A DNA stretch of 64,000 bases from Victivallales bacterium (GTDB taxonomy: Bacteria; Verrucomicrobiota; Lentisphaeria; Victivallales; GWF2-50-93). The stretch spans positions 3,301 through 67,300 of the forward strand of contig JBAQUG010000221.1 of assembly GCA_049297395.1 (NCBI GenBank), read 5' to 3'. Position numbers and translations under genes: made by a program. Positions 40,379-63,595 of this stretch are shown here, piece after piece; within the stretch, counting starts at the first letter, position 1, and the number at the start of each line of letters is the position of its first letter. A model generated the notes under the pieces. It saw nothing but the letters and a program-made list of their open reading frames with translations. It made no database searches and was not told the origin of the DNA.

Positions 40379-40407
40379 TTTCACACAACTGTTATCAGAG
40401 GTATAAT
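40379..40407 (+). promoter_or_regulatory. Candidate promoter of prepilin-like module A (TTTCAC-N17-TATAAT)
   Basis: -10 TATAAT at 40402-40407 and a weak -35 TTTCAC at 40379-40384. The same arrangement is conserved at 46274-46302. Confidence 0.3.
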
Positions 40408-40433
40408 AACAGCAAAACAGGAGGGAGGTCAGC

Positions 40434-41210
40434 ATGGAAAATGAAAAACGCCCGATTGATATTTCCTTTCCGCAGGAAAGTAAATATATGTCCATACCGC
40501 ACAGCTTGACAGATAACATGGCCTTCACTCTCGTTGAACTCCTCGTGGTGATAGCGATCATCGCAATTCTCGCGGCCATGCTGCTTCCGGCTCTGAAGAA
40601 CGCTAAAAGCAGCGCGAAATCCATCAGCTGCATCGGAAACCTGCGGCAGATCGGCCTGGCCGGACAGAGCTATTCCATGGACAGCGGAGACTACATTTGT
40701 CCGTGTTTTACCAATCCGTGGCTGGGAGCGCAATTCCCCAACAACTGGACTGGACTGCTCGCCGGCTATATGGGACACTCCGGTACAAGCAACTTCCAGT
40801 CCGCGCAGGAGATGCCGGTGTACATCTGTCCAGAAATACCAACGCGTTTCGGATATGGTCACAACTATTTTTATTTGGGCTGGAATAGTGCATTGTGGGT
40901 CAAGTCAGGCAAAGTACGGAAACCTGAAGCAACTCTCTTTATTGTGGATCAAACCAAGGCAGTCGACTCAAGCGATCTCACTTTTTTAGGATCTACAGAT
41001 CCAAGTTATGACAGCAATTGGCTCGCATGGAATCCCCAGGTGCGTCCTCCTCCTTGGAGCCCAGGATGGGGAGCATTGGAAGATTATCGGGTTGACTTTC
41101 GCCACCCTGGACGGACGACTGACGTACTCTGGTTGGATGGACACGCCAACTCTGAATTCAGAGATCCGCTGGTGCGATCGAGCAGTGCTGCCTATTGGGA
41201 TTTAAATTAG
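40434..41210 (+). CDS. Prepilin-type N-terminal methylation-domain protein with a C-terminal H-X9-DG-type motif (pseudopilin-like), module A
   Basis: [40 protein letters not shown] is the type IV pilin/pseudopilin N-terminal helix. C-terminal [16 protein letters not shown] (H-x10-DG). Has an unusual 29-residue N-terminal extension, [29 protein letters not shown] plus one residue, before FTL. Confidence 0.85.
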
Positions 41211-41407
41211 GCGGCCAAAGAGCCGCAACTCTTATAGAATAGTTACAGAGGAGCAAAGGCATCCCGATGTCCAAAAGAGAATCGGGATAAACTCCGGCAC
41301 AAAGTTTTGAAAAATGCCAAATATCTAACATGTTGGAGTTCAGAACTTTAGTTGTGTCTTGATTTTTATTGATAATCATTAAACTTTGAAATTCCTATAC
41401 GTTAAAT
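41210..41407 (+). repeat. Repeat element with conserved ends, copy 2; begins on the last base of the prepilin-A stop codon
   Basis: GGCGGCCAAAGAGCCGCAACTCT (41210-41232) and TAAACTTTGAAATTCCTATACGT (41380-41402) match the ends of 33894-34199 in inverted orientation. This element is absent from the paralogous intergenic region at 47154-47210. Confidence 0.55.
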
Positions 41408-41591
41408 TAAGGCGGGCTCTGCCCGCAACCCAAACTCGAAATCCGAAACAAATTCGAAATTAATTAAATTTCAAATGTTTCAAACATTGTTTTGAAAATT
41501 AAGATTTTCTTTTTTCTCGAGCTTGTTTCGGATTTTATATACGCCTAAGACATAGAACTGTGAAATAAAGACACTAAGGGAGACTGAAAAA

Positions 41592-42572
41592 ATGAAGATG
41601 AGAGCCTTTTTACCGTCAGTCGTATTGTTTCTGCTCGCATCTGGAACTTATGCCGCGCCCGGGAGTGACAATCTGATCCCCAATCCTTCATTCGAGGATC
41701 CGGGGCAAGGCAATGTTTCTGGCTGGGTCTTTGTTACGATGGTCGCAAAAGATCAAAAGTCATCCAGAGGGGTATATTTGAATGACGAAGCCACCGGCCA
41801 AAAGCAGGCGCATACGGGGAAATGCTGTGTGATGATCGAGGGCGGCACGGGCGCATGGCTCAGCCCTTCTTCCATCGAAGGCAAGGGGAATACGGCCTAC
41901 AAACTGACAGCATGGGCGAAAGGGGAAGGAAGCGCGTCTGTCACGGTGCAAACATTCGATGCTGCCGGCAAAGTCAAAGTAGGTCCTGTAGGCATGCAGT
42001 TTCGCCTGTCGTCCGAATGGCAGCAAGTCGAAATGGGGTTCGTCTCGGAACCGGATGCGGCCAAATTCAGGATTGACCTCAATTCCAGCAGTCCAGGAAA
42101 GGTGTGCTTTGATGACGTCAGCCTGCTGGAGGATGCCGAAGGCAAATCATTGCCCAAGGTAAATGTCTGGAACTTCCAATTTGAGGGAGAGAAGTCGATG
42201 GAAGGTTGGGCCAGGACCCAGGGGGCGACTGTGACGCCATCGGGAGATCATCTCCAGATTCAGGGGGCGGACTGGGATTCTAAAATTTATCGCTTCATCA
42301 ATCTCCGTGCCGGCAAGTACCGCTTGTCGGGAAGCGGTGCGGGTGAATTGATGGTTTATGCCGCCAAAGACTGGTCCGGGAAACGGATGACGATGGTCAA
42401 TCTTTCCGGCAAAGATTTCCGTCCGGACGAGCAGACCTTTGATTTCCCTGGAGGGCAGCTCCTGCTTGTGGTACAGGCTTGGGGAGAAAAAGCTCTTGTC
42501 AAAGTCCAATGGGTTGAGATTGCGCTGGAAACGCTCGCAGCAGCACCGTCGCCTGCAAGTGAAAAACGTTAA
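41592..42572 (+). CDS. Secreted CBM4/9-like two-domain protein, module A
   Basis: Signal peptide MKMRAFLPSVVLFLLASGTYA. NLIPNPSFEDPGQGNVSGW is the usual opening of CBM4/9-type beta-sandwich modules. Roughly four-fifths identical by eye to 47211-48191. Confidence 0.65.
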   Translation: MKMRAFLPSVVLFLLASGTYAAPGSDNLIPNPSFEDPGQGNVSGWVFVTMVAKDQKSSRGVYLNDEATGQKQAHTGKCCVMIEGGTGAWLSPSSIEGKGNTAYKLTAWAKGEGSASVTVQTFDAAGKVKVGPVGMQFRLSSEWQQVEMGFVSEPDAAKFRIDLNSSSPGKVCFDDVSLLEDAEGKSLPKVNVWNFQFEGEKSMEGWARTQGATVTPSGDHLQIQGADWDSKIYRFINLRAGKYRLSGSGAGELMVYAAKDWSGKRMTMVNLSGKDFRPDEQTFDFPGGQLLLVVQAWGEKALVKVQWVEIALETLAAAPSPASEKR

Positions 42573-42597
42573 AACAATTGAAATAGGAGGATATGAT

Positions 42598-45500
42598 ATG
42601 CCTGTTCGACTTTTAAAAATGTTGACTCTCGTGACTGCGCTTTCATGCATCATCGTTGTCGGATGTGCGCAGGATCAAAAGGCCATCGACAAGAAAAATG
42701 CGTCAGAAGTTGGATCTGCCGGGTTGAACGGAGCCGTCCCCGTCGCTGTGGATCGGACAACGACCGTCAAGTCAATCGCCGAGGTAACTCAGCGGTACGA
42801 GGCACTGAAGAAACTGGAAGGGACAACTCCAGCACCCGCCGGAAAGGCTTTGGAACGAGGAGCGGCTCTTATGAAATCGAACGCAGTGATACCGATCCTG
42901 TATCCTGTTAAAATAGAGATTGACGGCGACACCAGGGACTGGGAAAGCATACCATTTACCGGAACGCTCTCGGTCAATTGCGAGAGCTTCCCGCCGCCGA
43001 CCAGCGCCGCTGACGCCCGTGTCACATTCAAAATTGCCGCCACCGACAAGATGCTGGCGCTGCTCATTCTGGTCCATGACGACAAGCTGGTATTCGGAGC
43101 TTCGTCCGCTGTTTATCAGAATGACGCGATCGAGGTTTTCCTCGACCCGCTGTTTAGCCGGTCCGACAGGCATGATGACACGTCCATGCAGCTTTTCATC
43201 ACGTACAAGGATCAGACTATGAAGGATATTGTCGCCAGCGGACGCATACCGCTCATCGCCAAACCGGTTGCCGTGGAAGGCGGATGGGGGGTTGAGGTTG
43301 GCATTCCTCTGGATAATAGAATCTTCCAACTCCACCCCTTCGACGGTCTGCCCATCGGGATCAATATTTCCTACAATGACAACGACACGGGTAAAGGCCG
43401 TGAAAAAAAGATCACATGGAGCGCACTTGACTCTGGCGATTTTTCGTGGATGCGCACCGACGTTTTCGGCGCGGGCGTTTTTGTGGGCGACATTGCGATG
43501 CCCGTAGTGCCGCCGACACCTTCTGAAGCGGTGATGAAGGCCAAGCGCCTGCGCGCTCCAGTTGAATCGTTCACCGATGTCGCGGTGCTGGAGCGGGAAC
43601 GTCCCAATCCGTCCGTCGTACGCGGTTTCCAGTCCGGGGGATGTTCGCCGGAGCTTTTTTCCGAGATGAAGAAATGGGGGGCGAATGTCGTGCGAGTCCA
43701 GATGCAGGGTCTGAAAAGCTACAGTTCGCTCAAAGACAAGTCTGAACTCATGAAAGAGGAAAACATGAAGGCGTATCTCGACGAACTGGAGGGGATCGTC
43801 AAGGATGCGCGGACGGCCGGCATGAAGCTTCTGCTCGCCAACCACGGGGTGGTGCGTCCACCCAACATCACCGGGAACATTGCCGACTCAGCCAACAACA
43901 TCAATCAGAAGATGTACGAATTCTGGGATCATCCGGAGCTCGAAAAAATGTTCTGTTTCTTCTGGAAGAGCGTCGCCGAGCGGCTTTTGCCTTATCGGGA
44001 CACGGTCTGGGCGTATGATCTCATGAACGAGCCCTACGACCCAAACCAAATGCCATATGGCCCGAAACAGTGGCCGCCCCTGGCAGTGAAGGGGATCAAG
44101 GCAATCAGGAGCGTTGACAAGGACGTGTGGATTGACTACGAGGTAGGCCCCGGGGGGATGCCGTCGGGGTTCAGGGATCTGATGCCCCTCCCGGATCCGC
44201 ACATCATCTATGACTTTCATATGTACATGCCGCACGCATTCACCCATCAGGGACTTCAGGGTTACGGGGATGAAGGCTATGGAAGCGAGGAAAAGAAGGT
44301 TCGCTATCCGGGCATGATCGGTGGTATTCCGTTCGACAAGGATTATCTCAGGAAATGCATGCAGCCGGCGATTGATTTTCAGAAAAAATGGAGGGCACCG
44401 ATCAATATCGGCGAATTCAGCGCCATCGCCTGGGCGCCTCCGGAAAGCACATCGGCCTACCTTGCCGATATAATTTCCATCTTTGAAGAGAACGGTTGGT
44501 CATGGGAGTATCACGCATACGCTGAATTCCAAGGCTGGAGCCTGCTCCATGAAGATGGTTTTTACTGGAGACATTGGAAAAACGAGCAGCCCAGACCGGC
44601 GAAGAAGGAAACGCTGAGGGGGAAGGTGATCCGGGAGGCGCTAAAGAAGAATTCGGCCGGGGCGGCGGACATGCCGGATCCCGGCAAATCCATCCCTTCC
44701 GAAGCGAAAGCAGGTACTGCTGGATGGAGCAGCGCCGATGAGGACGTGTGGGAAAAACGGATCATGGCGGCTGGCGGCGTGATGCCGTCGTCACAGGAGA
44801 AGATATCCAATGAGAAGATGCGCATAAGCTCCGAGGCGCCGAATGCGTGGGGCGCGAAGACAAGATTGAAGGGGATGAAACGCCTGGCTCCTGGTTCACT
44901 CGAACCCGACAGCGTGGAAATACGGTTCGGCGGACGTAATTTCGCCATCGGCACCGATGTGCTGCTCGACCTGGTATGGGGCGGACTCGGACTCGCTCCT
45001 GGCGGAGTTCTCAATCCACAGGATGAGGTTGAAGTCTCCTACCGGCTCAGTTCCCGCCGGGTCGATGCGCTGGTGCGCGACCGCGAAGGAAGGGAGCGCG
45101 TGCGCCCCGGAACACCGCATCTCATCAATCCTCCATTGCCCTCAATATGTGATGGAGACACCCTTCTCGCCCGCGTATTCGTAGACTATCACAGCGACGG
45201 CAGCGTCTTCGATGTGCTGCCGCTCATGGCCGACGCCTCCAAGGCGCCGACGTCCACCACCGGACCGGAGAAGATCCCGGCGACCGTGAAAAAGATGACG
45301 GATGGAAAGGCCGTGAAGATCATCTGCTGGGGCGACAGCGTCACCGAGGGCGGAGATGTGGGGCCGGGCGAGCGTTACGGCGACCAGCTCGCGGCACGGC
45401 TCAAGGCGAAATACCCGGCGGCGACCGTACAGGTCATGGCGGTGGGGGGAAGCCAGTCGCTGCAGTGGCTCCCCGACCCGTCGCCTGCGCAACCGCATCA

Positions 45501-45921
45501 CCGCAGGGATGAGACGCGCTTCCAGCGCATTCTTGATGCGAAACCCGACCTGGTGGTGGTGGAGTTCGTCAACGACCAGTGGCTGTCGAAAGCCGCCGCG
45601 CTCCTGCATTACCGCACAAAAATCATCGCCCCGCTGCGCGCCATCGGGACGGAAGTGCTTCTGCTGACTCCGCAGCGCAACTGGGAGCGCAAGGGTTCGT
45701 TCCGCGATCCGGATACCCGAGAGTACGTCGCAGCATTGCGCGAAATTGGGCGCAACGACGAAGGCGTTGGTGTTGCGGACATGGCAGGCCGATGGGAGCA
45801 CCTATGGTGCGAGGGCATCCCGTTTCCGGTCTATCTTGCCAACGGGTTCAACCATCCGGATGTGCGCGGGCATCTCCTGTTCACCGAGGAAATCTGCCGG
45901 GCGCTGGGAATGGACAAATGA
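42598..45921 (+). CDS. Lipoprotein: CBM9-like domain + GH5 glycoside hydrolase + linker domain + SGNH/GDSL esterase
   Basis: AGGAGG RBS. Lipobox in MPVRLLKMLTLVTALSCIIVVGC. CBM9-like DGDTRDWESIPF...NDAIEVFLDP. GH5 motifs WAYDLMNEP (acid/base), FHMYMPHAFTHQG, and INIGEFS (nucleophile). C-terminal IICWGDSVTEGG ... NHPDVRGH is an SGNH-type Ser block plus a DxxH block. The start is set at ATG 42598; the longer track ORF overlaps the upstream gene. Confidence 0.8.
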   Translation: MPVRLLKMLTLVTALSCIIVVGCAQDQKAIDKKNASEVGSAGLNGAVPVAVDRTTTVKSIAEVTQRYEALKKLEGTTPAPAGKALERGAALMKSNAVIPILYPVKIEIDGDTRDWESIPFTGTLSVNCESFPPPTSAADARVTFKIAATDKMLALLILVHDDKLVFGASSAVYQNDAIEVFLDPLFSRSDRHDDTSMQLFITYKDQTMKDIVASGRIPLIAKPVAVEGGWGVEVGIPLDNRIFQLHPFDGLPIGINISYNDNDTGKGREKKITWSALDSGDFSWMRTDVFGAGVFVGDIAMPVVPPTPSEAVMKAKRLRAPVESFTDVAVLERERPNPSVVRGFQSGGCSPELFSEMKKWGANVVRVQMQGLKSYSSLKDKSELMKEENMKAYLDELEGIVKDARTAGMKLLLANHGVVRPPNITGNIADSANNINQKMYEFWDHPELEKMFCFFWKSVAERLLPYRDTVWAYDLMNEPYDPNQMPYGPKQWPPLAVKGIKAIRSVDKDVWIDYEVGPGGMPSGFRDLMPLPDPHIIYDFHMYMPHAFTHQGLQGYGDEGYGSEEKKVRYPGMIGGIPFDKDYLRKCMQPAIDFQKKWRAPINIGEFSAIAWAPPESTSAYLADIISIFEENGWSWEYHAYAEFQGWSLLHEDGFYWRHWKNEQPRPAKKETLRGKVIREALKKNSAGAADMPDPGKSIPSEAKAGTAGWSSADEDVWEKRIMAAGGVMPSSQEKISNEKMRISSEAPNAWGAKTRLKGMKRLAPGSLEPDSVEIRFGGRNFAIGTDVLLDLVWGGLGLAPGGVLNPQDEVEVSYRLSSRRVDALVRDREGRERVRPGTPHLINPPLPSICDGDTLLARVFVDYHSDGSVFDVLPLMADASKAPTSTTGPEKIPATVKKMTDGKAVKIICWGDSVTEGGDVGPGERYGDQLAARLKAKYPAATVQVMAVGGSQSLQWLPDPSPAQPHHRRDETRFQRILDAKPDLVVVEFVNDQWLSKAAALLHYRTKIIAPLRAIGTEVLLLTPQRNWERKGSFRDPDTREYVAALREIGRNDEGVGVADMAGRWEHLWCEGIPFPVYLANGFNHPDVRGHLLFTEEICRALGMDK

Positions 45922-46235: not shown

Positions 46236-46273
46236 CTTTGGCTGCAATGTCCAGGATTTTGGCTGTTTTGTGC

Positions 46274-46302
46274 TTTCATACAACATTTATCCGAGGTATA
46301 AT
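46274..46302 (+). promoter_or_regulatory. Candidate promoter of prepilin-like module B (TTTCAT-N17-TATAAT)
   Basis: -10 TATAAT at 46297-46302 and -35 TTTCAT at 46274-46279. Positionally conserved with 40379-40407. Confidence 0.3.
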
Positions 46303-46328
46303 TGCAGTAACAGAGGAGGGAGGTCAGC

Positions 46329-47153
46329 ATGAAAAATGAAGGATGCCCGATTGATATTTCCTTTCCCCCGGAAAGTAAATATAAGTCCATACCGCGCCGT
46401 TTGACAGGTAACATGCCGTTTACATTGATTGAATTGCTCATCGTGATTGCGATCATCGCAATCCTCGCGGCCATGCTCCTTCCGGCCCTGAAGAACGCGA
46501 AGGATACGGCGAAATCCATCGTCTGCATCGGCAATCTTGGCAGTCAGGGCAAGGCTTTTGCCTTCTACAGTTCCGACCATAACGACTGGAATGTCCCGCC
46601 GGAAGGTACCAATGCTGCGGGAGCCGGCACCGGGGGCCAGGGTTGGATAAGTCAGACATTGCCTTATCTCATGGCGTCTCCTTATTCTGTTTTAAAGCAG
46701 CAAAACTCCGTTTTCGCCGATCCTGCGGTCGACAAAGGGAAATTGTATTCAGGTGGTTCATCGGTCGACAATCAGTACTGGATTCACTATGGAATATGTG
46801 TCACCCCGCAGATTGTGCTATGCATGAAAAGGGGACTGGATCCTTTCACCACTTACAATTACTGGCGGTTCCACTATAAAATGAACCAAATAGCCAAGCC
46901 GGATCAGGCGGCGGCGGTTGCCGATACCATCAACGGAGGCTCCGCTGCCATCTACGACTATGAAAATTCGGCATGGTGTTTCTGGGCATGGACGGCCGGA
47001 ACTAATATTACTTATCTTGACTGGTATCGGCATTCCGCCAAAAGCAACTGGCTGTATCTGGACGGCCATGTGGAATCCTATCGCAAAGGAGATTTCTGGA
47101 CGGACAGCACAGTAATGTATGGGGCCAGACTGGGCAAGGCCTTTGGGAAATGA
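46329..47153 (+). CDS. Prepilin-type N-terminal methylation-domain protein with H-X9-DG motif, module B
   Basis: GGAGGGAGG RBS. Leader [30 protein letters not shown], then [29 protein letters not shown]-terminal [15 protein letters not shown] (H-x9-DG). Confidence 0.85.
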
Positions 47154-47210
47154 AAGTTTGAAGAGATGTTTGCCGGCAATTGCCTAACAAAAAAAAGAAA
47201 GATCTGAAAA

Positions 47211-48191
47211 ATGAAAAAGAGAAACTTTTTACAGTCAGTCGTATTATTTTTACTTGCGTTCGGAGCTTATGCCGCGCCCGGGAGTGAAAATCTGATACCC
47301 AATCCTTCGTTCGAGGATCCGGGACAGGGCAATGTTTCGGGCTGGGTCTTTTCTCCGGTCACCGCAAAAGATCAAAAGCCATCAAAGGGGGTGTATTTGA
47401 ACGACGAAGTCACCGGCCAGAAGCAGGCGCATACGGGGAAATGCTGCGTGATGATCGAGGGAGGCTCGGGCGCATGGCTCAGCCCTTCTTCCATCGAAGC
47501 CAAGGGGAATACGGCCTACAAACTGACGGCATGGGCGAAAGGGGAAGGCAACGCTTCCATCACGGTGCAGACATTCGATGCCGCCGGCAAAGTGGGTTCT
47601 CCTGGCGGTCTTTCGATCCACCTGTCACCCGACTGGCAGCAGTTTGAAATTGGGTTCGTCTCGGAACCGGATGCGGCCAAATTCAGGATTGACCTCAACG
47701 GTTCGGGAAAGGTGTGCTTTGATGACATCAGCTTGCTGGAGGATGCTGAAGGCAAATCGTTGCCCAAGGTAAACACCTACCGTTTCTCATTCGAGGGAGA
47801 TAATGCGATGGAAGGATGGGCCAAGACCCAGGGGGCGACCGTGACGCCATCCGGGGATCATCTCCAGATTCAGGGGGCGGACTGGAACTCTGAGATTTAC
47901 CGCTCTCTCAATCTCCGCGCCGGCAAGTACCGCTTGTCGGGAAGCGGCGCAGGTACAGTACTTGTATTTGTCGCCAAAGATTTTGATTGGTTGAAGAAGG
48001 GGGGGATATTTACGCGTGTCAATCTCTCCGGCAAAGACTTCCGCTCGGACGAGCAGGCCTTTGATTTTCCTGGAGGGCAGCTTCTGCTTGTGGTAAAAGC
48101 GGAAGGAGCCAAAGCTCTTGCCAAAGTCCAATGGGTGGAAATTGCGCTGGAATCGCTCGCGCCGCCGCCGCCTGCAAGTGAAAAACGTTAA
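47211..48191 (+). CDS. Secreted CBM4/9-like two-domain protein, module B
   Basis: Signal peptide MKKRNFLQSVVLFLLAFGAYA and NLIPNPSFEDPGQGNVSGW. Paralogue of 41592-42572. Confidence 0.65.
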   Translation: MKKRNFLQSVVLFLLAFGAYAAPGSENLIPNPSFEDPGQGNVSGWVFSPVTAKDQKPSKGVYLNDEVTGQKQAHTGKCCVMIEGGSGAWLSPSSIEAKGNTAYKLTAWAKGEGNASITVQTFDAAGKVGSPGGLSIHLSPDWQQFEIGFVSEPDAAKFRIDLNGSGKVCFDDISLLEDAEGKSLPKVNTYRFSFEGDNAMEGWAKTQGATVTPSGDHLQIQGADWNSEIYRSLNLRAGKYRLSGSGAGTVLVFVAKDFDWLKKGGIFTRVNLSGKDFRSDEQAFDFPGGQLLLVVKAEGAKALAKVQWVEIALESLAPPPPASEKR

Positions 48192-48216
48192 AACAATTGA
48201 AATAGGAGGATATTAT

Positions 48217-52434: not shown

Positions 52435-52438
52435 TTAA

Positions 52439-52474
52439 GGAGCCGTAAAGAAATAATTATTTCTGTACGGCTCC
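52439..52474 (+). terminator. Long near-perfect hairpin 5 nt after the ATPase stop
   Basis: GGAGCCGTA.AGAAATA-AT-TATTTCT.TACGGCTCC: 16 paired positions with one internal mismatch. No T-tract follows. Confidence 0.4.
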
Positions 52475-52511
52475 TAGAATAGGGACGAAAACAAACGAGG
52501 ATAAAGTTGCT

Positions 52512-53934: not shown

Positions 53935-53963
53935 TTGACAATATTCAAGAAAATAGATATAAT
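53935..53963 (+). promoter_or_regulatory. Consensus sigma70-type promoter upstream of the LacI-family gene
   Basis: TTGACA (53935-53940), a 17-nt spacer, then TATAAT (53958-53963). Confidence 0.6.
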
Positions 53964-53970
53964 GTCTCAG

Positions 53971-53988
53971 TGTTCAACCGGTTTAACA
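53971..53988 (+). promoter_or_regulatory. Candidate LacI-family operator
   Basis: TGTTCAACCGGTTTAACA is palindromic at 16 of 18 positions, with a central CCGG. It lies ~8 nt downstream of the -10 box. Confidence 0.45.
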
Positions 53989-55040: not shown

Positions 55041-55761
55041 AAAACAACCGATTGATATTTACTTTCCACAGGAAAGTAAATGTAAGTCCATACCGTACCG
55101 TTTGACAGGTAACATGCCATTCACACTTATCGAGCTACTCGTGGTGATTGCGATTATCGCAATTCTCGCGGCCATGCTCCTGCCTGCGCTGAAGGCCGCC
55201 AAGGATCAGGCCAATAGAATTTTATGCACAAGCAATATCAGGCAATGCGGAACAGGCCTGTTGTCCTACGCCGACGACTACAATAATTACCTTCCCATGT
55301 ATGACGGGATGACATCGGTCAAACCGGTCTACGCCAAGTGGCAGGACATGATTTTCTGCTACGTCTATCCGGGACAGAATGTAACGGTCAACAATTATTA
55401 CTTGGAAGGAGGCATCCTTCCAAAGGGGGTCTTCCGTTGTCCAGCTCAGACCGAGATTTCCTCGGCCACCAGGTTCTGGCATTACGGTATCAATATATAT
55501 GTGTCTGACTGGATGCCGGAGTGCCGCTATATTGCAAGGGTTAAAAACCCCGATGGCAGGCTACTGCTAATCGACGCCAATCCCACCGTATACAGCGATC
55601 CAGTTGTCAGAAACGACTGGCGCGACATCGGGTTCCGCCATTCCCGCGCCGCCAACAATCTTTTTCTCGACAACCATGTCGAACTACGCAAGGGCAGCGA
55701 CATCAGCCTTGACCCTGTGAATGCTCCTGGACGCAACTATTGGGGGCAGTACAATGACTGA
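55030..55761 (+). CDS. Prepilin-type N-terminal methylation-domain protein with a degenerate H-X9-D(N) motif, module C
   Basis: Overlaps the lacI-family stop by 11 nt. Leader [30 protein letters not shown], then [29 protein letters not shown]-terminal [15 protein letters not shown]. Confidence 0.85.
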
Positions 55762-55803: not shown

Positions 55804-58800
55804 ATGACTGCTAGGCAAAATTTTTCTGGAAGTCATCTTTTAAGAGACTCCAAACTATTGCAGTTGGTGCTCGGGACGGGCGTAGTTGCGGTTGCGCTGA
55901 CAGCAGGCTCCATCCTGGGAATGGCTGGTGACGCAATGCCACCTGTATCATTCCCTGAGAACGGCGTTGTCTCCATCTCTCCTTCCGGAAACTACCTGCT
56001 GGACGGCAGACCGCGCTTCCTAATCGGAGCGCAGATACCAGAATACCTGAAACCGGGGATTGCCCCCACTGAAGGCTACCCGAAGGAACAGGCCTGGCTC
56101 TACGAGGAAGTATTGAACTACCGGAACGCCCAGCGCATCGGCTTCGACTCCGTCGGCTACTTCACCGTCGAGGACTGGATGTTCCAGCCCGACGGCAAGC
56201 AGGTCAATCCGGCCTGGTCCAAAAAGGACATCGGAGACTTCATCGCGGACATCCACCTTCCGCTCTACGTTGACTTCACCTGCTTCCCATGGTCGCACGG
56301 CAAGCTCGCCGGGATGAAGCTGGTTCCTCCTGCGGCCTTGAACGAGGGCGGCTCCAGCAGCGAGGGCAACCACTGGGTTCCCTACAGCGTCAGCTCGCCG
56401 GAGGGGCGCGCCATCTACGAGAAGCTTTGGCTCTCCGGCGCCAAACACATCAAGGAGTCCGGCGGCAAGGCTCTCTTCTACGAGCTCTTCAACGAGCCGG
56501 CCTACAACGACCGCAGTCCGTACAACCGCAAGCTTTTCGCGGATCTCATGAAGGGGCGCTACGGCTCCATCGAAAGTCTCAACGCCGACTGGCATTCAAA
56601 CTACGCAGACTTCGAAGCCGTCGGACAGTTCAAGTCCCAGGGCGAGAACGCGGCACTTTTCGTCGAATGGTGCAAGTTCATGGAGGACTCCTTCGCGGAT
56701 CTCTGCAAGTTTGGAGTGGAGACGGTCGGAAAAATTGATCCGTCGGCCCACTGCTGCGTCCAGGCGCTCGGAGGGGCTTCTCTGTCCATCCCCCGAACCA
56801 ATATCAACCTCTACAAGATCGGACTGCATTGTGACACGGTATCGACACCTACCGGCGGCAGTATAGGCTTCACACGCGGACTGGACGCGCCGGCCACGCA
56901 TGCCATCGACACAGCTCCCTTGCAGTCGGTGCCGTCCGGACTTCTCGAACGGCGTTTCTACCTCTCCCTCGCAAAAGGCAAGCCCCTTCACGACGGCGAG
57001 ATGTATTCCGGCACCACACGCGAGTCGTTGATGTCCACCCTCTGGCTTGAGGCCATACGCGGCCTCGACGCCTCCTACTTTTTCGTATGGACTCGCCGTT
57101 CCTGGGATCACGGCTGGCAGCCGGCCGGCTCCGAAAAGGGCGGGCGCAAAGTCGCCGAGAAGTTCGGCTACCTCATGCTGAATCCCTATGCGGTGGAACC
57201 GGATGCCATGCCGGGAATAATGGAGTTCAAGCGGGAGTATCTCCTGATCGACGATCTCTTCCAGCCCAGGGAGAACCGCGTCAGGCCGCAGATCTCCCTG
57301 CTCATCAGCTTCCCGACCATGCGCTACTCCATAGCCACAGGTGGTGCCAACCACAAGATTCCGCAGAACTACTCCGCCGCATTGGACTTCAGCCACCAGC
57401 CCTATGACGTCATCCTGGAGGAGCAGCTGCCGGAAGGCCGCCTTGATGGCTGCAAAGTCCTTCTGGTCCCGGGTGTCTCCAACATCCTCCCTGAGACAGC
57501 CAAATATGTGGGCGATTTCGTAAGAAGGGGAGGAGTGCTTGTCCTCGGTGCCGCGACAATGTCCTGCGACGAACACGGCAATCCACTCGAAAACTGGGAG
57601 GAGGAGCTTGACCTCAGTATTGGGAAATCCATAGGCGCGGAAGTCTCCACTCTCTCGCTGGACTTTCCACAGCCGCCGGAACTGCCCGGACAACTCAAAT
57701 GCAAAATTGAAAGTGAAATCAATGCCGGCAGCGCCTGGCAGAAGATAGGCAGCGTCGGACGGGCGCCCGCCCTTCTGAAACGTGAGTTCGGCAAGGGGCG
57801 CATCTACTTCGTCGGCGCGAAGATGCCTGACTACTCGCTGGCAGGTGCGCTTGGAGGAATCCTCCTCAAGGAGGGTGTATTCAAACCCTGTCTCCTGATG
57901 GACGCCAACAGCGGCGAACTTGAGCCCAACGTCGAAATGCACGTGGCTCAGCGCGGCAGCAGGACCGGTGTCTTCCTCTACAACTGGGATTCCTATCCTA
58001 AACTCGCCAAATTGAAGCTCAATTCGTGCAAGAATGCCTTCATTGCGATCGATCCGTTCGCGAAGGATATGCTGCCGCAAACTGACGGAACGATCTCCCT
58101 TCTGCTGCCTCCGCACAAGCGAGTCGTGACGGTCTGCGGCCCGGCAGAGGAAATGTCAAATATCTATGGCGGGACAAAACACGTCTCCGTCGGGGAATTG
58201 CGCGAGCGCCTCGCTCAGACGCCGCACCTGCCCAAGCCAAAGGCTCTGGAGGACGACAATTTCAGTTTCAAGGCGGATCTCTCCAAGACCAGGATCCTCG
58301 ACCTGCGGAGCTTCGTCAACCGGCATTTCGAGGACTCTGTCCCGGGCGACGGCAAGGGAGGCTGGACGGACCAGGGCCGTGAAAACAGCCTTTTCGGAGT
58401 CCCCTGGGGCATCACGACGCTCTGCGGAGTTCCCTTCGACCTCATCCGCTTCGATCAGAATGAAAACAGGACCTGCCTTGTGCTGGCTTCCCAGAACATC
58501 AAAGGAGTGCCGTTGAAAGTAGAAGGAATCCCGGTCGACGACAAGGTCAAGGCCATCTACTTCCTGCACGCCACAGCCTGGGAAGGCGACAAGAACGAGT
58601 CCTTCCGCTACATAGTCGAATATGCCGACGGCGGCAAGGATGTCGTCCCAATCCGCAACAACATCGAGATCTCCGACTGGTGGTTTGGCAAAACTCCCAA
58701 TCAGCTGGAGGCTAAAAAAGCCTGGCATAACTCCGATAACAGGGGCCTCTACGCCTACAAATGGACTAGTCCGCACCCGGAGAAGACCGTGCAAAGCATC

Positions 58801-58866
58801 TCGGTCGAATCCGCAAACGGGCCGAGCATCCCTCTTATAGTTGCAATAACCATTGAAACACCTTGA
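55804..58866 (+). CDS. Large clan GH-A glycoside hydrolase with GH42-like (beta-galactosidase-type) architecture
   Basis: N-terminal membrane anchor LLQLVLGTGVVAVALTAGSILG. FYELFNEPAYN carries the acid/base NEP motif. The middle segment CKVLLVPGVSNILPETAKYVGDFVRRGGVLVLGAATMSCDEHGN resembles the GH42 trimerisation (glutamine-amidotransferase-like) domain. There is about 300 aa of additional C-terminal sequence. Confidence 0.5.
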   Translation: MTARQNFSGSHLLRDSKLLQLVLGTGVVAVALTAGSILGMAGDAMPPVSFPENGVVSISPSGNYLLDGRPRFLIGAQIPEYLKPGIAPTEGYPKEQAWLYEEVLNYRNAQRIGFDSVGYFTVEDWMFQPDGKQVNPAWSKKDIGDFIADIHLPLYVDFTCFPWSHGKLAGMKLVPPAALNEGGSSSEGNHWVPYSVSSPEGRAIYEKLWLSGAKHIKESGGKALFYELFNEPAYNDRSPYNRKLFADLMKGRYGSIESLNADWHSNYADFEAVGQFKSQGENAALFVEWCKFMEDSFADLCKFGVETVGKIDPSAHCCVQALGGASLSIPRTNINLYKIGLHCDTVSTPTGGSIGFTRGLDAPATHAIDTAPLQSVPSGLLERRFYLSLAKGKPLHDGEMYSGTTRESLMSTLWLEAIRGLDASYFFVWTRRSWDHGWQPAGSEKGGRKVAEKFGYLMLNPYAVEPDAMPGIMEFKREYLLIDDLFQPRENRVRPQISLLISFPTMRYSIATGGANHKIPQNYSAALDFSHQPYDVILEEQLPEGRLDGCKVLLVPGVSNILPETAKYVGDFVRRGGVLVLGAATMSCDEHGNPLENWEEELDLSIGKSIGAEVSTLSLDFPQPPELPGQLKCKIESEINAGSAWQKIGSVGRAPALLKREFGKGRIYFVGAKMPDYSLAGALGGILLKEGVFKPCLLMDANSGELEPNVEMHVAQRGSRTGVFLYNWDSYPKLAKLKLNSCKNAFIAIDPFAKDMLPQTDGTISLLLPPHKRVVTVCGPAEEMSNIYGGTKHVSVGELRERLAQTPHLPKPKALEDDNFSFKADLSKTRILDLRSFVNRHFEDSVPGDGKGGWTDQGRENSLFGVPWGITTLCGVPFDLIRFDQNENRTCLVLASQNIKGVPLKVEGIPVDDKVKAIYFLHATAWEGDKNESFRYIVEYADGGKDVVPIRNNIEISDWWFGKTPNQLEAKKAWHNSDNRGLYAYKWTSPHPEKTVQSISVESANGPSIPLIVAITIETP

Positions 58867-58881
58867 TAAAGGAGAACAGAA

Positions 58882-59484
58882 ATGAAATCAGCACTCGCAG
58901 CAACCATTCTCGTCGTCGGCCTGATGGCTGTCGCGGCAGTCCAGGATATCGTCCTCTTCGACGGCTCTGTCAAGGACGGCTGGACTTTCGCCAACTGGTT
59001 CGGAGCCACGCTTTCGGCCATCGACGACCCATCGAACCAGGGGAGGAAAATCCTCAAGTTCACCGCCTCGAAGGAAGCTAAGGCATGGGCGGGCTCGCAT
59101 TTCACGACCATGATGGGTTCAATACCCGGTGGCAACGCACCGGCTCTGCCCAAGGAGTTAGCCGAGTCTGGAAAGCTTACATTTTTAATCAACGGATCCG
59201 ATGACGAATTTGGGTTCCATCACGGGGAGCAGAACATTCAGGTCTGCCTTGGCAAACGCGTCTCGGAGCAGGGCGAATGGAAGACTGGCCCATATCTAGC
59301 CATAGCCCCCTTTATCGAGGGCAAGGCTGTCGACTCCAACAAGGAGAGCTGGCAGAAGGCATCGATCCCCCTGAGTTCCCTCCTGAAAGCTGTCGATCTC
59401 GACTGCATCGGAAGCATCGGCTTCCAGTTCGTGGACGCCACGCCGTCCGCAGGAGTCCTGATCGACAAAATAAGAATCGAATGA
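58882..59484 (+). CDS. Small secreted hypothetical protein (beta-sandwich / CBM-like guess)
   Basis: Signal peptide MKSALAATILVVGLMAVAAVQ. 200 aa. An AGGAGAA RBS-like sequence lies upstream. No family motif recognised. Confidence 0.5.
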   Translation: MKSALAATILVVGLMAVAAVQDIVLFDGSVKDGWTFANWFGATLSAIDDPSNQGRKILKFTASKEAKAWAGSHFTTMMGSIPGGNAPALPKELAESGKLTFLINGSDDEFGFHHGEQNIQVCLGKRVSEQGEWKTGPYLAIAPFIEGKAVDSNKESWQKASIPLSSLLKAVDLDCIGSIGFQFVDATPSAGVLIDKIRIE

Positions 59485-59491
59485 GGAATTT

Positions 59492-60436
59492 ATGAATATC
59501 GGAATTATATTGAGGAGGAAACCTTTTTCCAGGGGAATCAACTTTTTAGGACTGAATGCGGTCTTCTCGTTTACCGCTGCGATCATCTGCTTTTGTGGCA
59601 TGCAGTGGTTTGCCTGCGGGGAGGACTTAAAAAAGGAGGAGTCGGTGGTAAAACCTTCAAAGAAGCTGCCAGTCGCAGGAGAAGTCTTCAGTGTGAATGG
59701 CTGTACAGCATTTATAATTCTGCCAGGACAAGTTCCTGTCGGTAACATGACACCATGGGTATGGTACGCCCCGACACTTCCAGCTCTGCCGGGTCCGGAG
59801 GAGAAGTGGATGTTTCAGAAGTTCGTGGATGCCGGCATTGCGGTCGCCGGGATCGATGTAGGTGAATCGTTTGGCAGTCCGAACGGCAGAGCTCTCTTTT
59901 CCTCCTTCTACAAGGAACTTGTCCTGAAGCGCGGACTCTCGAAGACGCCCTGCCTGCTGGCGAGAAGCCGCGGCGGGCTGATGCTCTATAACTGGGCGGC
60001 GGAGAATCCCGAGTCCTTGGCCTGCATAGCCGGCATCTATCCGGTCTGCAACCTCAGCAGCTATCCTGGACTCAAGACCGCCTGCGGCGCATACGGCATG
60101 ACTGAAGAGCAGCTCGGTGCCAATCTGGCTGAGCACAATCCTATTGATCGCCTGGCTCCACTGGCAAAAGCAAAGGTGCCCATCTTTCACATCCATGGAG
60201 ATGTCGATACAACGGTTCCTCTGGAAAAGAACTCGGGCGAACTGGAGAAGAGGTACACCGCGCAGGGCGGAAACATGACGCTCAAGGTGGTCAATGGCCA
60301 GGGTCACAACTATTGGTCCGGCTGGTTCCAGTGCCAGGAACTGGTCGATTTCGTGATCGCCCACGCCAAAAAAGAAAAACCGGACAAGAAGCCGGAGACT
60401 GCCGGCACGGAAGCCGCTCCACAGTCCAAGCGCTGA
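59492..60436 (+). CDS. Alpha/beta-hydrolase-fold esterase (dienelactone hydrolase / prolyl oligopeptidase-like)
   Basis: N-terminal hydrophobic anchor. Nucleophile-elbow-like LLARSRGGLML and FHIHGDVDTTVP (His-region pattern). Lys/Glu-rich C-terminal tail. Confidence 0.65.
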   Translation: MNIGIILRRKPFSRGINFLGLNAVFSFTAAIICFCGMQWFACGEDLKKEESVVKPSKKLPVAGEVFSVNGCTAFIILPGQVPVGNMTPWVWYAPTLPALPGPEEKWMFQKFVDAGIAVAGIDVGESFGSPNGRALFSSFYKELVLKRGLSKTPCLLARSRGGLMLYNWAAENPESLACIAGIYPVCNLSSYPGLKTACGAYGMTEEQLGANLAEHNPIDRLAPLAKAKVPIFHIHGDVDTTVPLEKNSGELEKRYTAQGGNMTLKVVNGQGHNYWSGWFQCQELVDFVIAHAKKEKPDKKPETAGTEAAPQSKR

Positions 60437-60480
60437 CATCGGACAGTTTTTCAATTGATTTAAAAAACATCTGTGAAGAC

Positions 60481-61833
60481 ATGACCGGAACAACATATTA
60501 CGTTGACCCGCAGGATGGAAATGATACACATTCCGGGGCAGCGCCTTCAGAACCGCTCAAGACATCCGCGTGTCGGCAGTTCCTCCCAGGCGACACAGTA
60601 CTTTTCAAACGAGGCAGCGTGATCCGCGACATGCTGCACACATGTGACGGGTCGGACAAAAAGCCGATCACCTATGGAGCCTACGGCACTGGTGGAAAAC
60701 CGGTTTTTCTCGGCTCAATGACGGCAAGTCTACCTACGGACTGGGCTGAAGAAAAACCTTCCGTCTGGCGGTTCACCGGCGCCTTTCCCAGCGAAGTGTG
60801 CAATCTGGTTTTCAATGGGGGTGAAATGTGCGGGAACCTCCGCTGGCAGATTGATGATCTGAAAAAACAGGGGGAATGGCACTACACCCTTATCGGAAAA
60901 ACCACCGGCAAATCACAATGTGAGACATCAGGAGCCGGAGGCATCCTCTATATCTTTTCCGACGGCAATCCGGGCAGTTGCTATTCCAGTATTGAATGCT
61001 CGCTCTGGGGCAATCGTAAACTGGCCGGCGGCAGTCATGATATTGTAATTGAAAATCTGGTCTTCCGGAATTCCGGCGTCCATGGATTTCATGCCGTCGG
61101 AGCTGAGAATATCACTCTCCGGCAATGCGAATTCCATTGCATCGGCGGTGCGGTCTGGAACAGGGAACGACGTATCCGCTTCGGCAATGCCATCGAGTTC
61201 TGGGAAGGAGGGAGGAATCTCCTTGTGGAAAAGTGTGTGTTCAAGGACATCTATGATTCCGGGGTGACCCATCAGGGCGGACCTCCCGCAGTTATTCCGG
61301 AACAGATCTTTTTCACAGGCAATCTTTTCATCAATTGCGGCATGGCCGCCTACGAATGCCGGGAACCGGCGGCAAAGGAAGTCTATTTTGAACAGAATAC
61401 CTGCATCAACGCAGGCGGTGGATTCAGTATGCAGGGGGAAGCCCCTCCGCGCCAGTCTGAAATCCATCCGCAGCCGATGGGGCATCATGTCTTCATCTGG
61501 CGGATTGTTAAAAACAGCCAGAGGGGCCATGTCTATATCCGCAACAATATTTTCCATGAGGCGCCCTGTGGGGCAGCCATCTATTCGATCATCGACCCGG
61601 CCGATGAACAGCAGTTCGTCATAGACAGCAACTGTTACTGGCAGACAACAGGCAGAGTGCTGGTCCATATCAACGGTAAAGACTACGCACCGACAGAGTT
61701 TAAACTCTACCAGTCAGAAACCGGCAAGGATCATGGGAGCATGCTTGCAGACCCGCTGTTTCTCGACCCGGAAAAAGGAAATTTCCGCTTGCAGGAAAAA
61801 TCGCCATGCCCCGGATGGGGAATCATTGAATAA
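60481..61833 (+). CDS. Right-handed parallel beta-helix (pectate-lyase-fold) protein
   Basis: Starts MTGTTYYVDPQDGNDTHSG, the usual opening of such proteins. PbH1-like repeat turns follow: VIENLVFRNSGVHGFH, AENITLRQCEFHCIGG and LLVEKCVFKDIYDSGV. The start is set at ATG 60481; the longer track ORF overlaps the esterase gene. Confidence 0.6.
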   Translation: MTGTTYYVDPQDGNDTHSGAAPSEPLKTSACRQFLPGDTVLFKRGSVIRDMLHTCDGSDKKPITYGAYGTGGKPVFLGSMTASLPTDWAEEKPSVWRFTGAFPSEVCNLVFNGGEMCGNLRWQIDDLKKQGEWHYTLIGKTTGKSQCETSGAGGILYIFSDGNPGSCYSSIECSLWGNRKLAGGSHDIVIENLVFRNSGVHGFHAVGAENITLRQCEFHCIGGAVWNRERRIRFGNAIEFWEGGRNLLVEKCVFKDIYDSGVTHQGGPPAVIPEQIFFTGNLFINCGMAAYECREPAAKEVYFEQNTCINAGGGFSMQGEAPPRQSEIHPQPMGHHVFIWRIVKNSQRGHVYIRNNIFHEAPCGAAIYSIIDPADEQQFVIDSNCYWQTTGRVLVHINGKDYAPTEFKLYQSETGKDHGSMLADPLFLDPEKGNFRLQEKSPCPGWGIIE

Positions 61834-61837
61834 ATTT

Positions 61838-63595
61838 ATGGAGACTACTGTTATGAAAAATGTATCAATCGTGCAGTCGCCCGCCTGGGTCAAAGATCTG
61901 ATTATCTACGAGATTGCGACCAAGGGGTTCACTTCTCCCAATGGCCCGGAAAGCGGCACGTTCAATTCGCTCCGGGAGAAAATGGAATATCTCAGGGAAC
62001 TCGGGATAACGTGTGTCTGGCTCACCGGCAGCCAATGGAGCCAGCCGGATCATTTTTACGGCATATGGAACCAGTATGCCTGCATCAGGCCCGACATGCT
62101 GGATCCGAGCCTTGGAACTCGTGATGATTTCAAAGGGATGATAGACGAGGCGCATCGCTGCGGAATCCGGATTGTCCTGGATGTGATCACGCACGGCGTC
62201 ATGAACGAAAGCCCTCTAATCCGCGAGAAGCCCCATTGGTTCAAGGGCGGCAGCTGGGGGATGACGGATTACGACTGGTGCGGCGGACACGGAGACCTCG
62301 ACGAATGGTGGGTGGATACCTGGGTCGGACTTGTCAGGGATTTTCATGTCGACGGGTTCCGGCTGGATGTGGCGATCGGTCGGTTCGACCTGTGGAGTCT
62401 GATTCGCAAAAAGGCTTTGGAGCTTGGACATGAGATCGTGGTGTTTCCTGAATTTGCCCCCGCCACTGCCGGCGTTACGGACTTTACGCAGGACGGATGC
62501 AGGTTGAGCAGAGGAGGAAGGCTGTCCGATGACGTTGCCGGTTTTATCGGCGATGCGGTAGCCAGGAGAAATCTCCTGAATATGTATAAGGTGAAGATAA
62601 CCTATGCGGATGGATCAGTGGCGGAAAGCCATACGGGGGATTTGAATGCGCTTGCCGTGGCCTATGAGGGCGAGTATAAGGAACTGAAGCAGTGCAAGGA
62701 ATCGGCATATGTCGAGCATGGCGGAATCCTGCGTGTCGACAACGTCGGCATCGATAAGAAGATTTCGCATATCGTCGTCTATGACGGCGAAAGATACGGC
62801 TGGGAACTTGGCATGACAGGCGACAGGTCGCTCAGGGCCAAAGGGAAGGCACCGACGCTCCGGCTAAATTTTCCGCTTCGGAAACAGGATGGACAATATT
62901 TGTCAATCATGCTGAGCAGCCATGACTACGGCTGGGAAGGTTTCCCTGCCGGTCAGAATCCCTATTTCGCGCAAGGCAGCCGGTGTTTGTTCGGGTACGC
63001 TTTCCTGTTCGCCCCGGCGATACCGATCTTCATGTCGGGGGAGGAATTCAACGCCGATTTTGTCCCTCTGCCGAAACTTACCCCGAAACTTTACGGCGGC
63101 CTTGATCATGGCAAAGGCACCTGGCTGTATGGCAGTTGGATCCAATGGGATCAGCTTGCCGCCATGGAAAAGCAGGAGATGCTAACGGATGTGAAAAAAA
63201 TGATAGGCATCCGTAGACGGGCAGCCTCGCTCATTCGTCCTTTCCGGATGGGCGAAGAGGCTATGACGCTGTTGCATGTTGATTGCGAATCCGACAGGCC
63301 CATTCCTGTCCCATATATGTATTATGATAAGAACCGGATGCTTATTGTCGCAGGAAACGCCGACGAGTATGCTGGCGTGGAGGTAAAATTCAAGATGCCA
63401 GTCCCTGTGGTGGAAAATCTTCCGTCGGGGAGCTTGTTCAAGGTTTCCGACCTGTGGAACGGTAAGGAGGCCGGCATGGCGACGGCGGCGGAATTTGAAG
63501 ACATGACGTGGACAATTTCAAAGGATCGGTCAGCGGGAGGCGGGCTGCTGGTTCTGGAACTCAAGAGCGAAGGGATGCCGGCATGCCGGCGCTGA
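61838..63595 (+). CDS. Alpha-amylase-family (GH13) protein
   Basis: Region I-like VLDVITHG. Region II GFRLDVA (nucleophile Asp). Region III-like VVFPEF. Region IV-like LSSHD. An alternative start is ATG 61853. Confidence 0.75.
   Translation: METTVMKNVSIVQSPAWVKDLIIYEIATKGFTSPNGPESGTFNSLREKMEYLRELGITCVWLTGSQWSQPDHFYGIWNQYACIRPDMLDPSLGTRDDFKGMIDEAHRCGIRIVLDVITHGVMNESPLIREKPHWFKGGSWGMTDYDWCGGHGDLDEWWVDTWVGLVRDFHVDGFRLDVAIGRFDLWSLIRKKALELGHEIVVFPEFAPATAGVTDFTQDGCRLSRGGRLSDDVAGFIGDAVARRNLLNMYKVKITYADGSVAESHTGDLNALAVAYEGEYKELKQCKESAYVEHGGILRVDNVGIDKKISHIVVYDGERYGWELGMTGDRSLRAKGKAPTLRLNFPLRKQDGQYLSIMLSSHDYGWEGFPAGQNPYFAQGSRCLFGYAFLFAPAIPIFMSGEEFNADFVPLPKLTPKLYGGLDHGKGTWLYGSWIQWDQLAAMEKQEMLTDVKKMIGIRRRAASLIRPFRMGEEAMTLLHVDCESDRPIPVPYMYYDKNRMLIVAGNADEYAGVEVKFKMPVPVVENLPSGSLFKVSDLWNGKEAGMATAAEFEDMTWTISKDRSAGGGLLVLELKSEGMPACRR

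Follow-up and report, generated by a model that had tools for sequence, protein, structure and literature searches.

Pilin-like H-X9-DG genes between regulators and secreted enzymes in glycan-utilization modules of Lentisphaerota and related bacteria

RESULTS AND DISCUSSION

Three pilin-like genes precede glycan enzyme genes in a Victivallales genome

We analyzed 64,000 nucleotides (nt) of DNA from a Victivallales bacterium (Lentisphaerota, within the Planctomycetes-Verrucomicrobia-Chlamydiae, or PVC, superphylum); this whole stretch is called the window below. A six-frame scan of the entire 64-kb window for pilin-like N termini found the sequence FTL(I/V)ELL in exactly three open reading frames (ORFs), all on the + strand and here called pilA, pilB, and pilC:

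40434 to 41210, + strand: pilA, 258 amino acids (aa), FTLVELL helix, H-X10-DG near the C terminus
46329 to 47153, + strand: pilB, 274 aa, H-X9-DG
55030 to 55761, + strand: pilC, 243 aa, H-X9-DN

A previous annotation made from the letters without database searches (the sequence-only reading) had proposed that each of these genes precedes a set of glycan-related proteins. Genes for secreted or lipoprotein glycan enzymes do lie downstream of all three, and we refer to the resulting sets as modules A, B, and C. The same reading ascribed a C-terminal H-X9-D(G/N) motif to every member, which holds for pilB and pilC; in pilA the spacing is H-X10-DG. The remaining features of the modules, which encode proteins with carbohydrate-binding modules (CBM) and glycoside hydrolase (GH) domains, are as follows.

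Module A:
40227 to 40267, + strand: terminator-like hairpin with a T-run after the gene for an 1872-aa secreted enzyme; upstream boundary of the module
40380 to 40407, + strand: promoter-like site TTCACA-16-TATAAT, with homology to the region of the pilB promoter
41592 to 42572, + strand: CBM4_9-like secreted protein, 326 aa, Sec signal peptide (Pfam and N terminus)
42598 to 45921, + strand: lipoprotein with CBM9-like, GH5, and GDSL/SGNH esterase parts; ATG start preceded by a Shine-Dalgarno (SD) sequence, lipobox VVGC

Module B:
46275 to 46302, + strand: promoter-like site TTCATA-16-TATAAT
47211 to 48191, + strand: CBM4_9-like secreted protein, Sec signal, 81% identity with the module A paralogue
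48217 to 51018, + strand: lipoprotein with CBM9-like, GH5, and GDSL parts, lipobox VVGC (Pfam and N terminus)

Module C:
53935 to 53963, + strand: lacI-pilC operon promoter TTGACA-17-TATAAT, a perfect (12/12) sigma-70 consensus
53971 to 53988, + strand: LacI-operator-like palindrome TGTTCAACCGGTTTAACA, the sole perfect match within the window
54012 to 55040, + strand: LacI-family regulator, its stop overlapping the pilC start by 11 nt
55804 to 58866, + strand: GH42-like protein, 1020 aa, hydrophobic N-terminal signal or anchor
58882 to 59484, + strand: 200-aa secreted protein, signal peptide, weak match to SGBP_B_XBD (surface glycan binding)
59492 to 60436, + strand: alpha/beta-hydrolase esterase, hydrophobic N terminus
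60481 to 61833, + strand: right-handed beta-helix protein without a signal peptide
61853 to 63595, + strand: GH13 alpha-amylase-family protein without a signal peptide

Pfam matches and N-terminal sequences bore out the gene content previously assigned to modules A and B (a CBM-like protein plus a CBM9-like/GH5/esterase lipoprotein) and to module C (GH42-like enzyme, small secreted protein, esterase, beta-helix protein, and GH13). The idea that all module C proteins are exported did not survive, since the N termini of the beta-helix and GH13 proteins carry no signal peptide. The 11-nt lacI/pilC overlap, the consensus sigma-70 promoter, and the operator-like palindrome were all present as described. 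The operator TGTTCAACCGGTTTAACA was sought near pilA and pilB and not found, leaving control of modules A and B by the module C LacI unsupported. In module A, 381 nt separate pilA from the CBM gene. As the sequence-only reading had also noted, assembly machinery is missing: no sizeable ORF of the 64-kb window contained an ATPase, platform, secretin, or peptidase domain of a type II secretion system (T2SS) or type IV pilus (T4P). No ORF of the region matched a SusC-like TonB-dependent or SusD-like Pfam domain.

The three proteins all scored above the TIGR02532 cutoff (20.8 to 21.6 bits against 16.3) and gave partial matches to GspG, ComGC, and PilA over their first ~60 mature residues, the best NCBIfam partial match being the T2SS major pseudopilin GspG. 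Scores for Pfam N_methyl were at the cutoff or slightly below it. DUF1559 (PF07596) appeared below threshold in pilA only (18.3 bits; cutoff, 23.3), with no match of any kind to pilB or pilC in the PF07596 profile search, and TIGR04294 appeared below threshold in pilB only (17.9 bits; cutoff, 19). Because their own scores fall below these cutoffs yet the nearest homologues carry PF07596 (precomputed on close homologues P0002 to P0006), we regard the window proteins as divergent relatives of the DUF1559/H-X9-DG family.

Residues F1 (F31) and E5 (E35) were unchanged in 87 of 87 homologues. Matches to PDB sequences were confined to the alpha1 helix and comprised Thermus PilA (E = 4e-17), geopilin, PilE, and GspG (E = 2e-7). 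The AlphaFold2 (AF2) model of pilC (predicted local distance difference test score of 88) consists of a 50-residue helix (residues 33 to 83) and a four-stranded sheet on which the RH...DN-H block sits, with a disordered leader. No known fold could be assigned to the pilC head, for which Foldseek matches were weak and helix driven only. On sequence evidence, the alpha1 helix places all three proteins in the pilin superfamily. They depart from it at the cleavage site, where superfamily members have a leader that is short and basic and has Gly (seldom Ala) at position -1; the leader of the window proteins is 30 residues long, and no machinery is encoded alongside.

The order of regulator, pilin-like gene, and secreted enzyme is conserved

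Neighboring genes were scored in 80 PVC loci picked via the family alignment, in which ORFs were called and 78 pilin-like genes found; genes of the same loci at least 3 genes distant from a pilin-like gene served as controls. A Peripla_BP_3 domain, a sugar-binding domain found in regulators of the periplasmic-binding-protein (PBP) type, was present in 13 of 70 immediate upstream (-1) neighbors (18.6%; the helix-turn-helix domain was of GntR type in 9 and of LacI type in 3) compared to 3 of 149 controls (2%), an enrichment of about ninefold (Fisher P = 3.7e-5). AraC-type regulators occupied the -1 position in 4 further loci of the 70, and a T2SS gene (T2SSF domain) did so in only 1. Downstream, co-oriented +1 genes had a median length of 558 aa versus 308 aa for other genes and followed after a median gap of 54 nt, and their products were signal peptide-like in 23 of 42 cases (55%) compared to 114 of 560 controls (20%; P = 2.8e-6). 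Glycan-related domains (heparinase II/III, GHL6/10, DUF4838 with GH2_N, pectate-lyase-like, beta-helix, or CBM) were found in 7 of 10 Lentisphaerota +1 proteins; one of the others was a solute symporter, and two had no match. The sequence-only reading had suggested looking for enrichment of this kind, and the link of pilin-like genes to regulator and secreted-enzyme genes exceeds this window. The order of genes is a conserved one, and both kinds of neighbor are in statistical excess: a cytoplasmic sugar-responsive regulator (LacI, GntR-PBP, or AraC), a DUF1559/H-X9-DG pilin-like gene, and one or more large secreted or lipoprotein enzymes recur together in Lentisphaerota and other PVC bacteria. 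The pilin-like genes are thereby shown to be members of glycan-enzyme modules under sugar regulation.

Individual loci follow the same pattern. Relatives of pilC (52 to 55% identical overall and 48 to 50% in the head) were found in three otherwise different neighborhoods, and in all three a gene for a GH42-like protein of 1355 to 1361 aa lies downstream, directly or after one small gene. The pairing of the pilC-type head with a GH42-like enzyme is thus kept from genome to genome. The Pfam-annotated contexts that we looked up for close or distant relatives were all glycan related; they included GntR-PBP, two LamG genes, pilin, and GH2; LacI, ADP-ribosylglycohydrolase, and pilin (locus L094); and two GntR genes, a 500-aa protein, pilin, BNR, DUF4380, FG-GAP, and GH10. 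In Lentisphaerae bacterium ADurb.Bin242, the series pilin, GH5, and AXE1 esterase mirrors modules A and B, and on the same contig a LacI gene overlaps a pilin-like gene. LacI homologues directly upstream of a pilin-like gene were also found at loci L003/L004, L010 (twice), L030, L045, and L084. The pilin-like gene usually stands early in its operon, just before the largest secreted enzyme. That it heads each set, as previously claimed, fits the window, where it precedes the glycan enzymes in all three modules; elsewhere it is not always the first gene of the operon.

On contigs of a pilC relative (L007:2176-5805 and L008:1856-5476), we also observed a GntR gene, a pilin-like gene, a gene for a 948- to 963-aa FG-GAP protein, and a transporter gene of the major facilitator superfamily (MFS). 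The CBM-like protein of modules A and B had only three homologues among 5.8 billion proteins. The one outside the lineage (L090:1-621; 63% identity) has the gene for a repeat protein with a PEP-CTERM tail in front of it, in place of a pilin-like gene.

Adjacency of this kind could also arise without any specific link, either from genome composition or because a general envelope protein hitch-hikes on a promoter or regulator. The family is indeed huge (at least 7973 of 8000 scored candidates in the homologue search and, in a head-only search, 1024 clusters at 50% identity), carbohydrate-active enzymes (CAZymes) and regulators abound in Lentisphaerota genomes, downstream genes outside Lentisphaerota are heterogeneous, and the 1872-aa enzyme of the window does without a pilin-like gene. 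Against this stand the controls, which were drawn from the same loci and reached only 2% for PBP-type regulators (versus 18.6%) and 20% for signal peptide-like products (versus 55%), as well as the persistence of the pilC-type/GH42-like pair in different neighborhoods and the occurrence of a regulator/pilin gene overlap in two unrelated loci. We therefore consider the absence of a specific link quite improbable.

Modules A and B are mosaics with unrelated pilin heads

Modules A and B share two blocks of DNA homology, the first joining 40343-40642 to 46238-46537 (83% identity) and the second joining 41588-44655 to 47207-50265 (83.7%). Between them, the pilin head and 3' spacer (40643-41587 and 46538-47206) have no detectable DNA similarity. 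At the protein level, the pilA and pilB heads are 32% identical, about as distant from each other as each is from pilC. The two lipoproteins are 71% identical over the whole alignment, with closely similar CBM9 and GH5 parts and a different C-terminal region. Plain co-duplication of the pilin gene with its enzymes was considered and is ruled out for the head, given that a nonhomologous head lies between two ~83 to 84% blocks. From the alignments, the head looks either to have been replaced as a cassette or to have diversified to an extreme degree. Because nearly identical enzymes pair with unrelated heads, head and enzyme set are not strictly matched, and the mosaic, which fits interchangeable heads, argues against a simple rule of one head per substrate or one head per enzyme.

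The three genes share a leader that behaves as a nucleotide-level element

The first 87 nt of each pilin-like gene form a shared leader:

40434 to 40520, + strand: pilA leader, 87 nt, hairpin at 40454 to 40492, with a strong SD sequence, AGGAGGGAGG, before it
46329 to 46415, + strand: pilB copy, hairpin at 46349 to 46387
55030 to 55116, + strand: pilC copy, hairpin at 55050 to 55088 with an uninterrupted 13-bp stem

Each of the three pairs is 87.4% identical over the 87 nt, so that the copies are equidistant. Differences within the leader number 3 to 4, 5 to 6, and 2 to 3 at the first, second, and third codon positions, with 6 to 8 nonsynonymous codons versus 1 synonymous codon; in the adjoining helix DNA the corresponding figures are 3 to 5, 0 to 1, and 10 to 12, with 8 to 11 synonymous versus 2 to 3 nonsynonymous codons. 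Since this codon-position pattern is unlike that of coding DNA and unlike that of the adjoining helix, the leader appears to be constrained as nucleotides and not as protein. Every copy was predicted to form a 13-bp hairpin (z = -4.2 to -6.4). Four of the hairpin columns vary, and the changes lie in the loop, coincide with the single mismatch (an A-U pair in pilC), or produce a G.U pair; by hand count, 27 of 87 possible substitutions are stem compatible (P of ~0.01, from three sequences only).

Among the 120 best homologues, the leader was restricted to the three window genes, and a scan of JGI metagenomes for the hairpin gave one match, to pilB of the same organism. A search of Rfam 15 gave no matches at the gathering threshold for the window as a whole, nor any at E values of ≤1 for positions 40350-40620. 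A mobile or repeat element is ruled out, as copies occur only at the three gene starts and in frame. In a related strain (L091:608-1760; ENA ERZ27249449 k141_410593), module A has an IS110-family transposase gene directly upstream of the pilA-like gene; there, only the final ~20 nt of the leader are still homologous to the window, so that the SD sequence, ATG1, and hairpin are absent, yet the pilA-like ORF is intact.

From these comparisons, the leader is most likely an mRNA element whose conserved and stable hairpin lies shortly after the start of the ORF, and it is probably not a conserved signal peptide. The sequence-only reading had singled out a peculiar leader common to the three genes; its presence in all of them stands, and its behavior is that of a nucleotide-level element. 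The hairpin would give the three modules a common posttranscriptional control. Two points weigh on the other side: the hairpin rests on three sequences, and the leader may well be translated too, because ATG1 follows the strong SD sequence AGGAGGGAGG at a distance of 6 to 7 nt, whereas the internal ATG has no more than a weak AGG in front of it. A translated leader would be a long, type-IVb-like class III signal peptide whose likeness among the copies stems from recent gene conversion, the hairpin being incidental. In addition to the placement of the SD sequence, the reading frame is open in 3 of 3 copies, NCBI and Logan gene calls take in the leader, and long leaders occur sporadically among homologues. 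The lack of third-position bias speaks against this reading, with divergence of 12.6% compared to 37 to 44% at third positions of the helix, as do the stem compatibility of all variable hairpin columns (P of ~0.01 by hand count) and the related strain that keeps an intact pilA-like ORF with no leader. The equidistance of the copies also weighs against it, as does the likeness of pilC to pilA and pilB, which begins at the SD sequence, inside the end of lacI. We judge a translated leader of this type to be the less probable of the two, though a serious contender.

Other genes of the window

Upstream of module A, positions 30162-39999 form a pilin-free glycan module composed of an AraC regulator, an ADP-ribosylglycohydrolase (31571-33226), and the 1872-aa secreted enzyme (34381-39999), which contains five PKD domains, four CBM4_9 domains, LamG, and alpha-L-AF_C and has no pilin-like gene before it. 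The interval between modules B and C (51115-53519) encodes an AAA_14/DUF4143 ATPase and a GH29-like protein without a signal peptide (52512-53519), and membership of these genes in either module is not obvious. Positions 5936-11785 hold apparently fragmented methylase ORFs of the MmeI/Eco57I type, a DUF1016/YhcG nuclease, and a T5orf172/ResIII helicase, and this segment is probably a defense or mobile island. A ParE toxin/Phd-YefM antitoxin pair is encoded at 16128-16741 on the - strand.

A possible role in glycan capture on a type IV filament scaffold

We tentatively propose that the modules are polysaccharide utilization operons of a PVC type, each of which joins to its enzymes a pilin-like envelope protein of its own that captures or retains glycan on a shared type IV filament machine; in our estimation the likelihood of this proposal falls a little short of even. 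Each pilin-like protein would be made together with its own module when the cognate sugar appears. It would insert in the inner membrane by its class III-type N-terminal helix, with the highly variable head exposed, and would plug into a filament machine (T2SS or T4P-like) whose genes would lie in another part of the genome. Glycan could then be captured or retained at the envelope for the coexpressed enzymes, a role like that of SusD or of surface glycan-binding proteins (SGBPs) on a pilin scaffold. Of the mechanisms that we considered, capture of glycan on a filament seems the likeliest, because head type tracks enzyme family even where the enzymes are only 23 to 24% identical, because in their diversity and their regulation module by module the proteins recall SusD/SGBP-type binders, because F1 and E5 are invariant, and because dextran binds pili-like fibers in Planctomycetes (PMC5394234, PMC12673574). 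The sequence-only reading had suggested substrate-specific, interchangeable subunits. The link to the module is supported and the heads of modules A and B suit interchangeability; the notion that each head serves one substrate is weakened.

Several observations weigh against glycan capture by a filament. A filament, a surface position, and glycan binding are predictions for every member, and a Foldseek search of the PDB with the pilC model gave no significant match to the head, the top matches being pilins at E values of ≥0.15 driven by the helix. The enzyme genes of modules A and B are ~84% identical in DNA next to heads that are unrelated at the DNA level, and the GH42-like partners of pilC relatives share only 23 to 24% identity with the window enzyme. 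Many downstream genes outside Lentisphaerota are not glycan related, and the CBM-like protein, in the sole homologue found outside the lineage, comes after a PEP-CTERM protein instead of a pilin. The cleavage site adds to these difficulties. Prepilin peptidases need G or A at position -1. In the window this residue is P in pilB and pilC and A in pilA (junctions 40518-40523, 46413-46418, and 55114-55119), and a canonical prepilin peptidase would not be expected to cut the window proteins at such sites. G or A occupied this position in 26 of 26 Verrucomicrobiota and 8 of 8 Planctomycetota loci but in only 2 of 36 Lentisphaerota loci, where R, S, K, P, I, and T predominated, and in 24 of the 120 best pilC matches. 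Lentisphaerota thus depart from the canonical prepilin peptidase site across the phylum, which raises a separate question about pilin processing.

These residues bear on the view that the Lentisphaerota members form no filament and remain uncleaved, anchored in the inner membrane by one transmembrane helix between a short basic cytoplasmic N terminus and a periplasmic head that binds oligosaccharides or escorts enzymes. Such a protein would account for the loss of G/A at -1 in Lentisphaerota and its retention in Verrucomicrobiota and Planctomycetota. It would also suit the K or R found within four residues before the helix in 84% of homologues, as expected of an N-in signal anchor, and the lack of machinery nearby, with a T2SS gene at only 1 of 70 upstream positions. 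DUF1559 has been called solute binding in planctomycete genome papers (PMC4807772), and its Pfam identifier is SBP_bac_10. The invariance of F1 and E5 over 87 homologues is hard to explain for a mere anchor, however, transporter genes are usually missing from the modules, and the sequence and AF2 model are otherwise of the pilin type. We regard an uncleaved anchor as unlikely.

Pilins of this kind could instead serve export and not capture, as operon-specific pseudopilins in a T2SS pseudopilus that recruit and push out the coencoded enzymes. The partners are mostly large proteins with a signal peptide or lipobox that need a route across the outer membrane, GspG is the best NCBIfam partial match and is among the PDB sequence matches, and a planctomycete that digests fucoidan externally induces T2SS-related proteins as it does so (PMC11685898). 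A conserved cargo-recognition interface fits poorly, however, because the divergence of head and enzyme is mismatched both ways: the CBM-like proteins and lipoproteins of modules A and B are 81% and 71% identical (~84% in DNA), yet the heads are 32% identical, and pilC relatives are 52 to 55% identical, yet their GH42-like partners are only 23 to 24% identical. The noncanonical -1 residue argues against assembly into a pseudopilus too, and some modules hold cytoplasmic enzymes. A role as secretion adaptors thus seems to us to have a low probability, similar to that of the uncleaved anchor.

The conserved arrangement bears on wider questions. DUF1559/H-X9-DG proteins are among the largest paralogue families of PVC bacteria; with 68 genes they form the biggest paralogue group of Planctopirus limnophila (PMC10632474), and their function is called unknown in the literature (PMC10632474, PMC4807772). 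Dextran binds pili-like fibers in Planctomycetes (PMC5394234), the components of which were unidentified as of a 2025 review (PMC12673574), and the binding and uptake of polysaccharides by PVC bacteria, which do without SusC/D, still await an explanation (PMC5394234, PMC12673574). A planctomycete grown on fucoidan induced 28 secretion-system-related proteins (PMC11685898). We found no paper linking DUF1559/H-X9-DG genes to CAZyme operons or describing the arrangement, and the regulator/pilin/enzyme context is absent from any family description that we found. The conserved order of regulator, pilin, and enzyme now provides a glycan-use hypothesis for the family and gives both problems one genetically testable hypothesis. 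The pilin-like gene is also a marker for loci resembling polysaccharide utilization loci (PULs) in Lentisphaerota, where the enzymes are often too divergent for Pfam/CAZy-type annotation. More speculatively, the H-X9-DG/DUF1559 paralogues could be exchangeable, sugar-induced lectin subunits of a shared type IV filament machine; the filament would bind one particular polysaccharide and, by retracting or tethering it, bring it to the coexpressed enzymes or into the enlarged periplasm. They would then be the capture and uptake system, independent of SusC/D, behind fiber-bound dextran and "selfish" uptake in PVC bacteria, with noncanonical processing in Lentisphaerota and modules coordinated by the shared hairpin. 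This fuller scheme is doubtful, with perhaps one chance in four of being right as a whole.

Comparison with known systems

The window proteins resemble the PVC DUF1559 (PF07596) and TIGR04294 families in their FTLIELL methylation-type helix and, with the variant spacing of pilA and the DN of pilC, in a C-terminal block akin to RH-x9-DGH, and differ from them in scoring below the curated cutoffs, in their 30-residue leader, and in lacking G at -1. With T2SS pseudopilins (GspG to GspK) and type IV pilins they share the alpha1 sequence and F1 and E5 and, judging by the AF2 model of pilC, may share a fold of helix plus beta-sheet. Unlike those proteins, genes of the window type do not lie beside assembly genes, have hundreds of paralogues, and encode very divergent heads; the Lentisphaerota members also lack the cleavage-site G/A, and the head has no significant match among solved structures. 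Pilin-family proteins reportedly bind insoluble glycans in other bacteria, namely, the cellulose-binding type IV pilin-like proteins CbpC/GP25 of Ruminococcus albus and proteins of pilin-linked adhesion in Fibrobacter; these are said to be single proteins of Firmicutes and Fibrobacteres, unlike a family with one paralogue per enzyme operon.

Like Bacteroidota PULs, the modules combine a substrate-responsive regulator, a noncatalytic envelope protein, and co-oriented secreted or lipoprotein CAZymes, with many variants per genome. Their regulators are cytoplasmic LacI, GntR, or AraC proteins and their signature protein is pilin-like, and because SusC and SusD are absent they are not PULs of the Bacteroidota type. 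The dextran-binding, pili-like fibers at the crateriform structures of planctomycetes (PMC5394234) likewise belong to PVC hosts and bind polysaccharide that is then internalized. Those fibers were described by microscopy with no genes assigned; we infer that H-X9-DG pilin-like genes may be linked to such dextran fibers.

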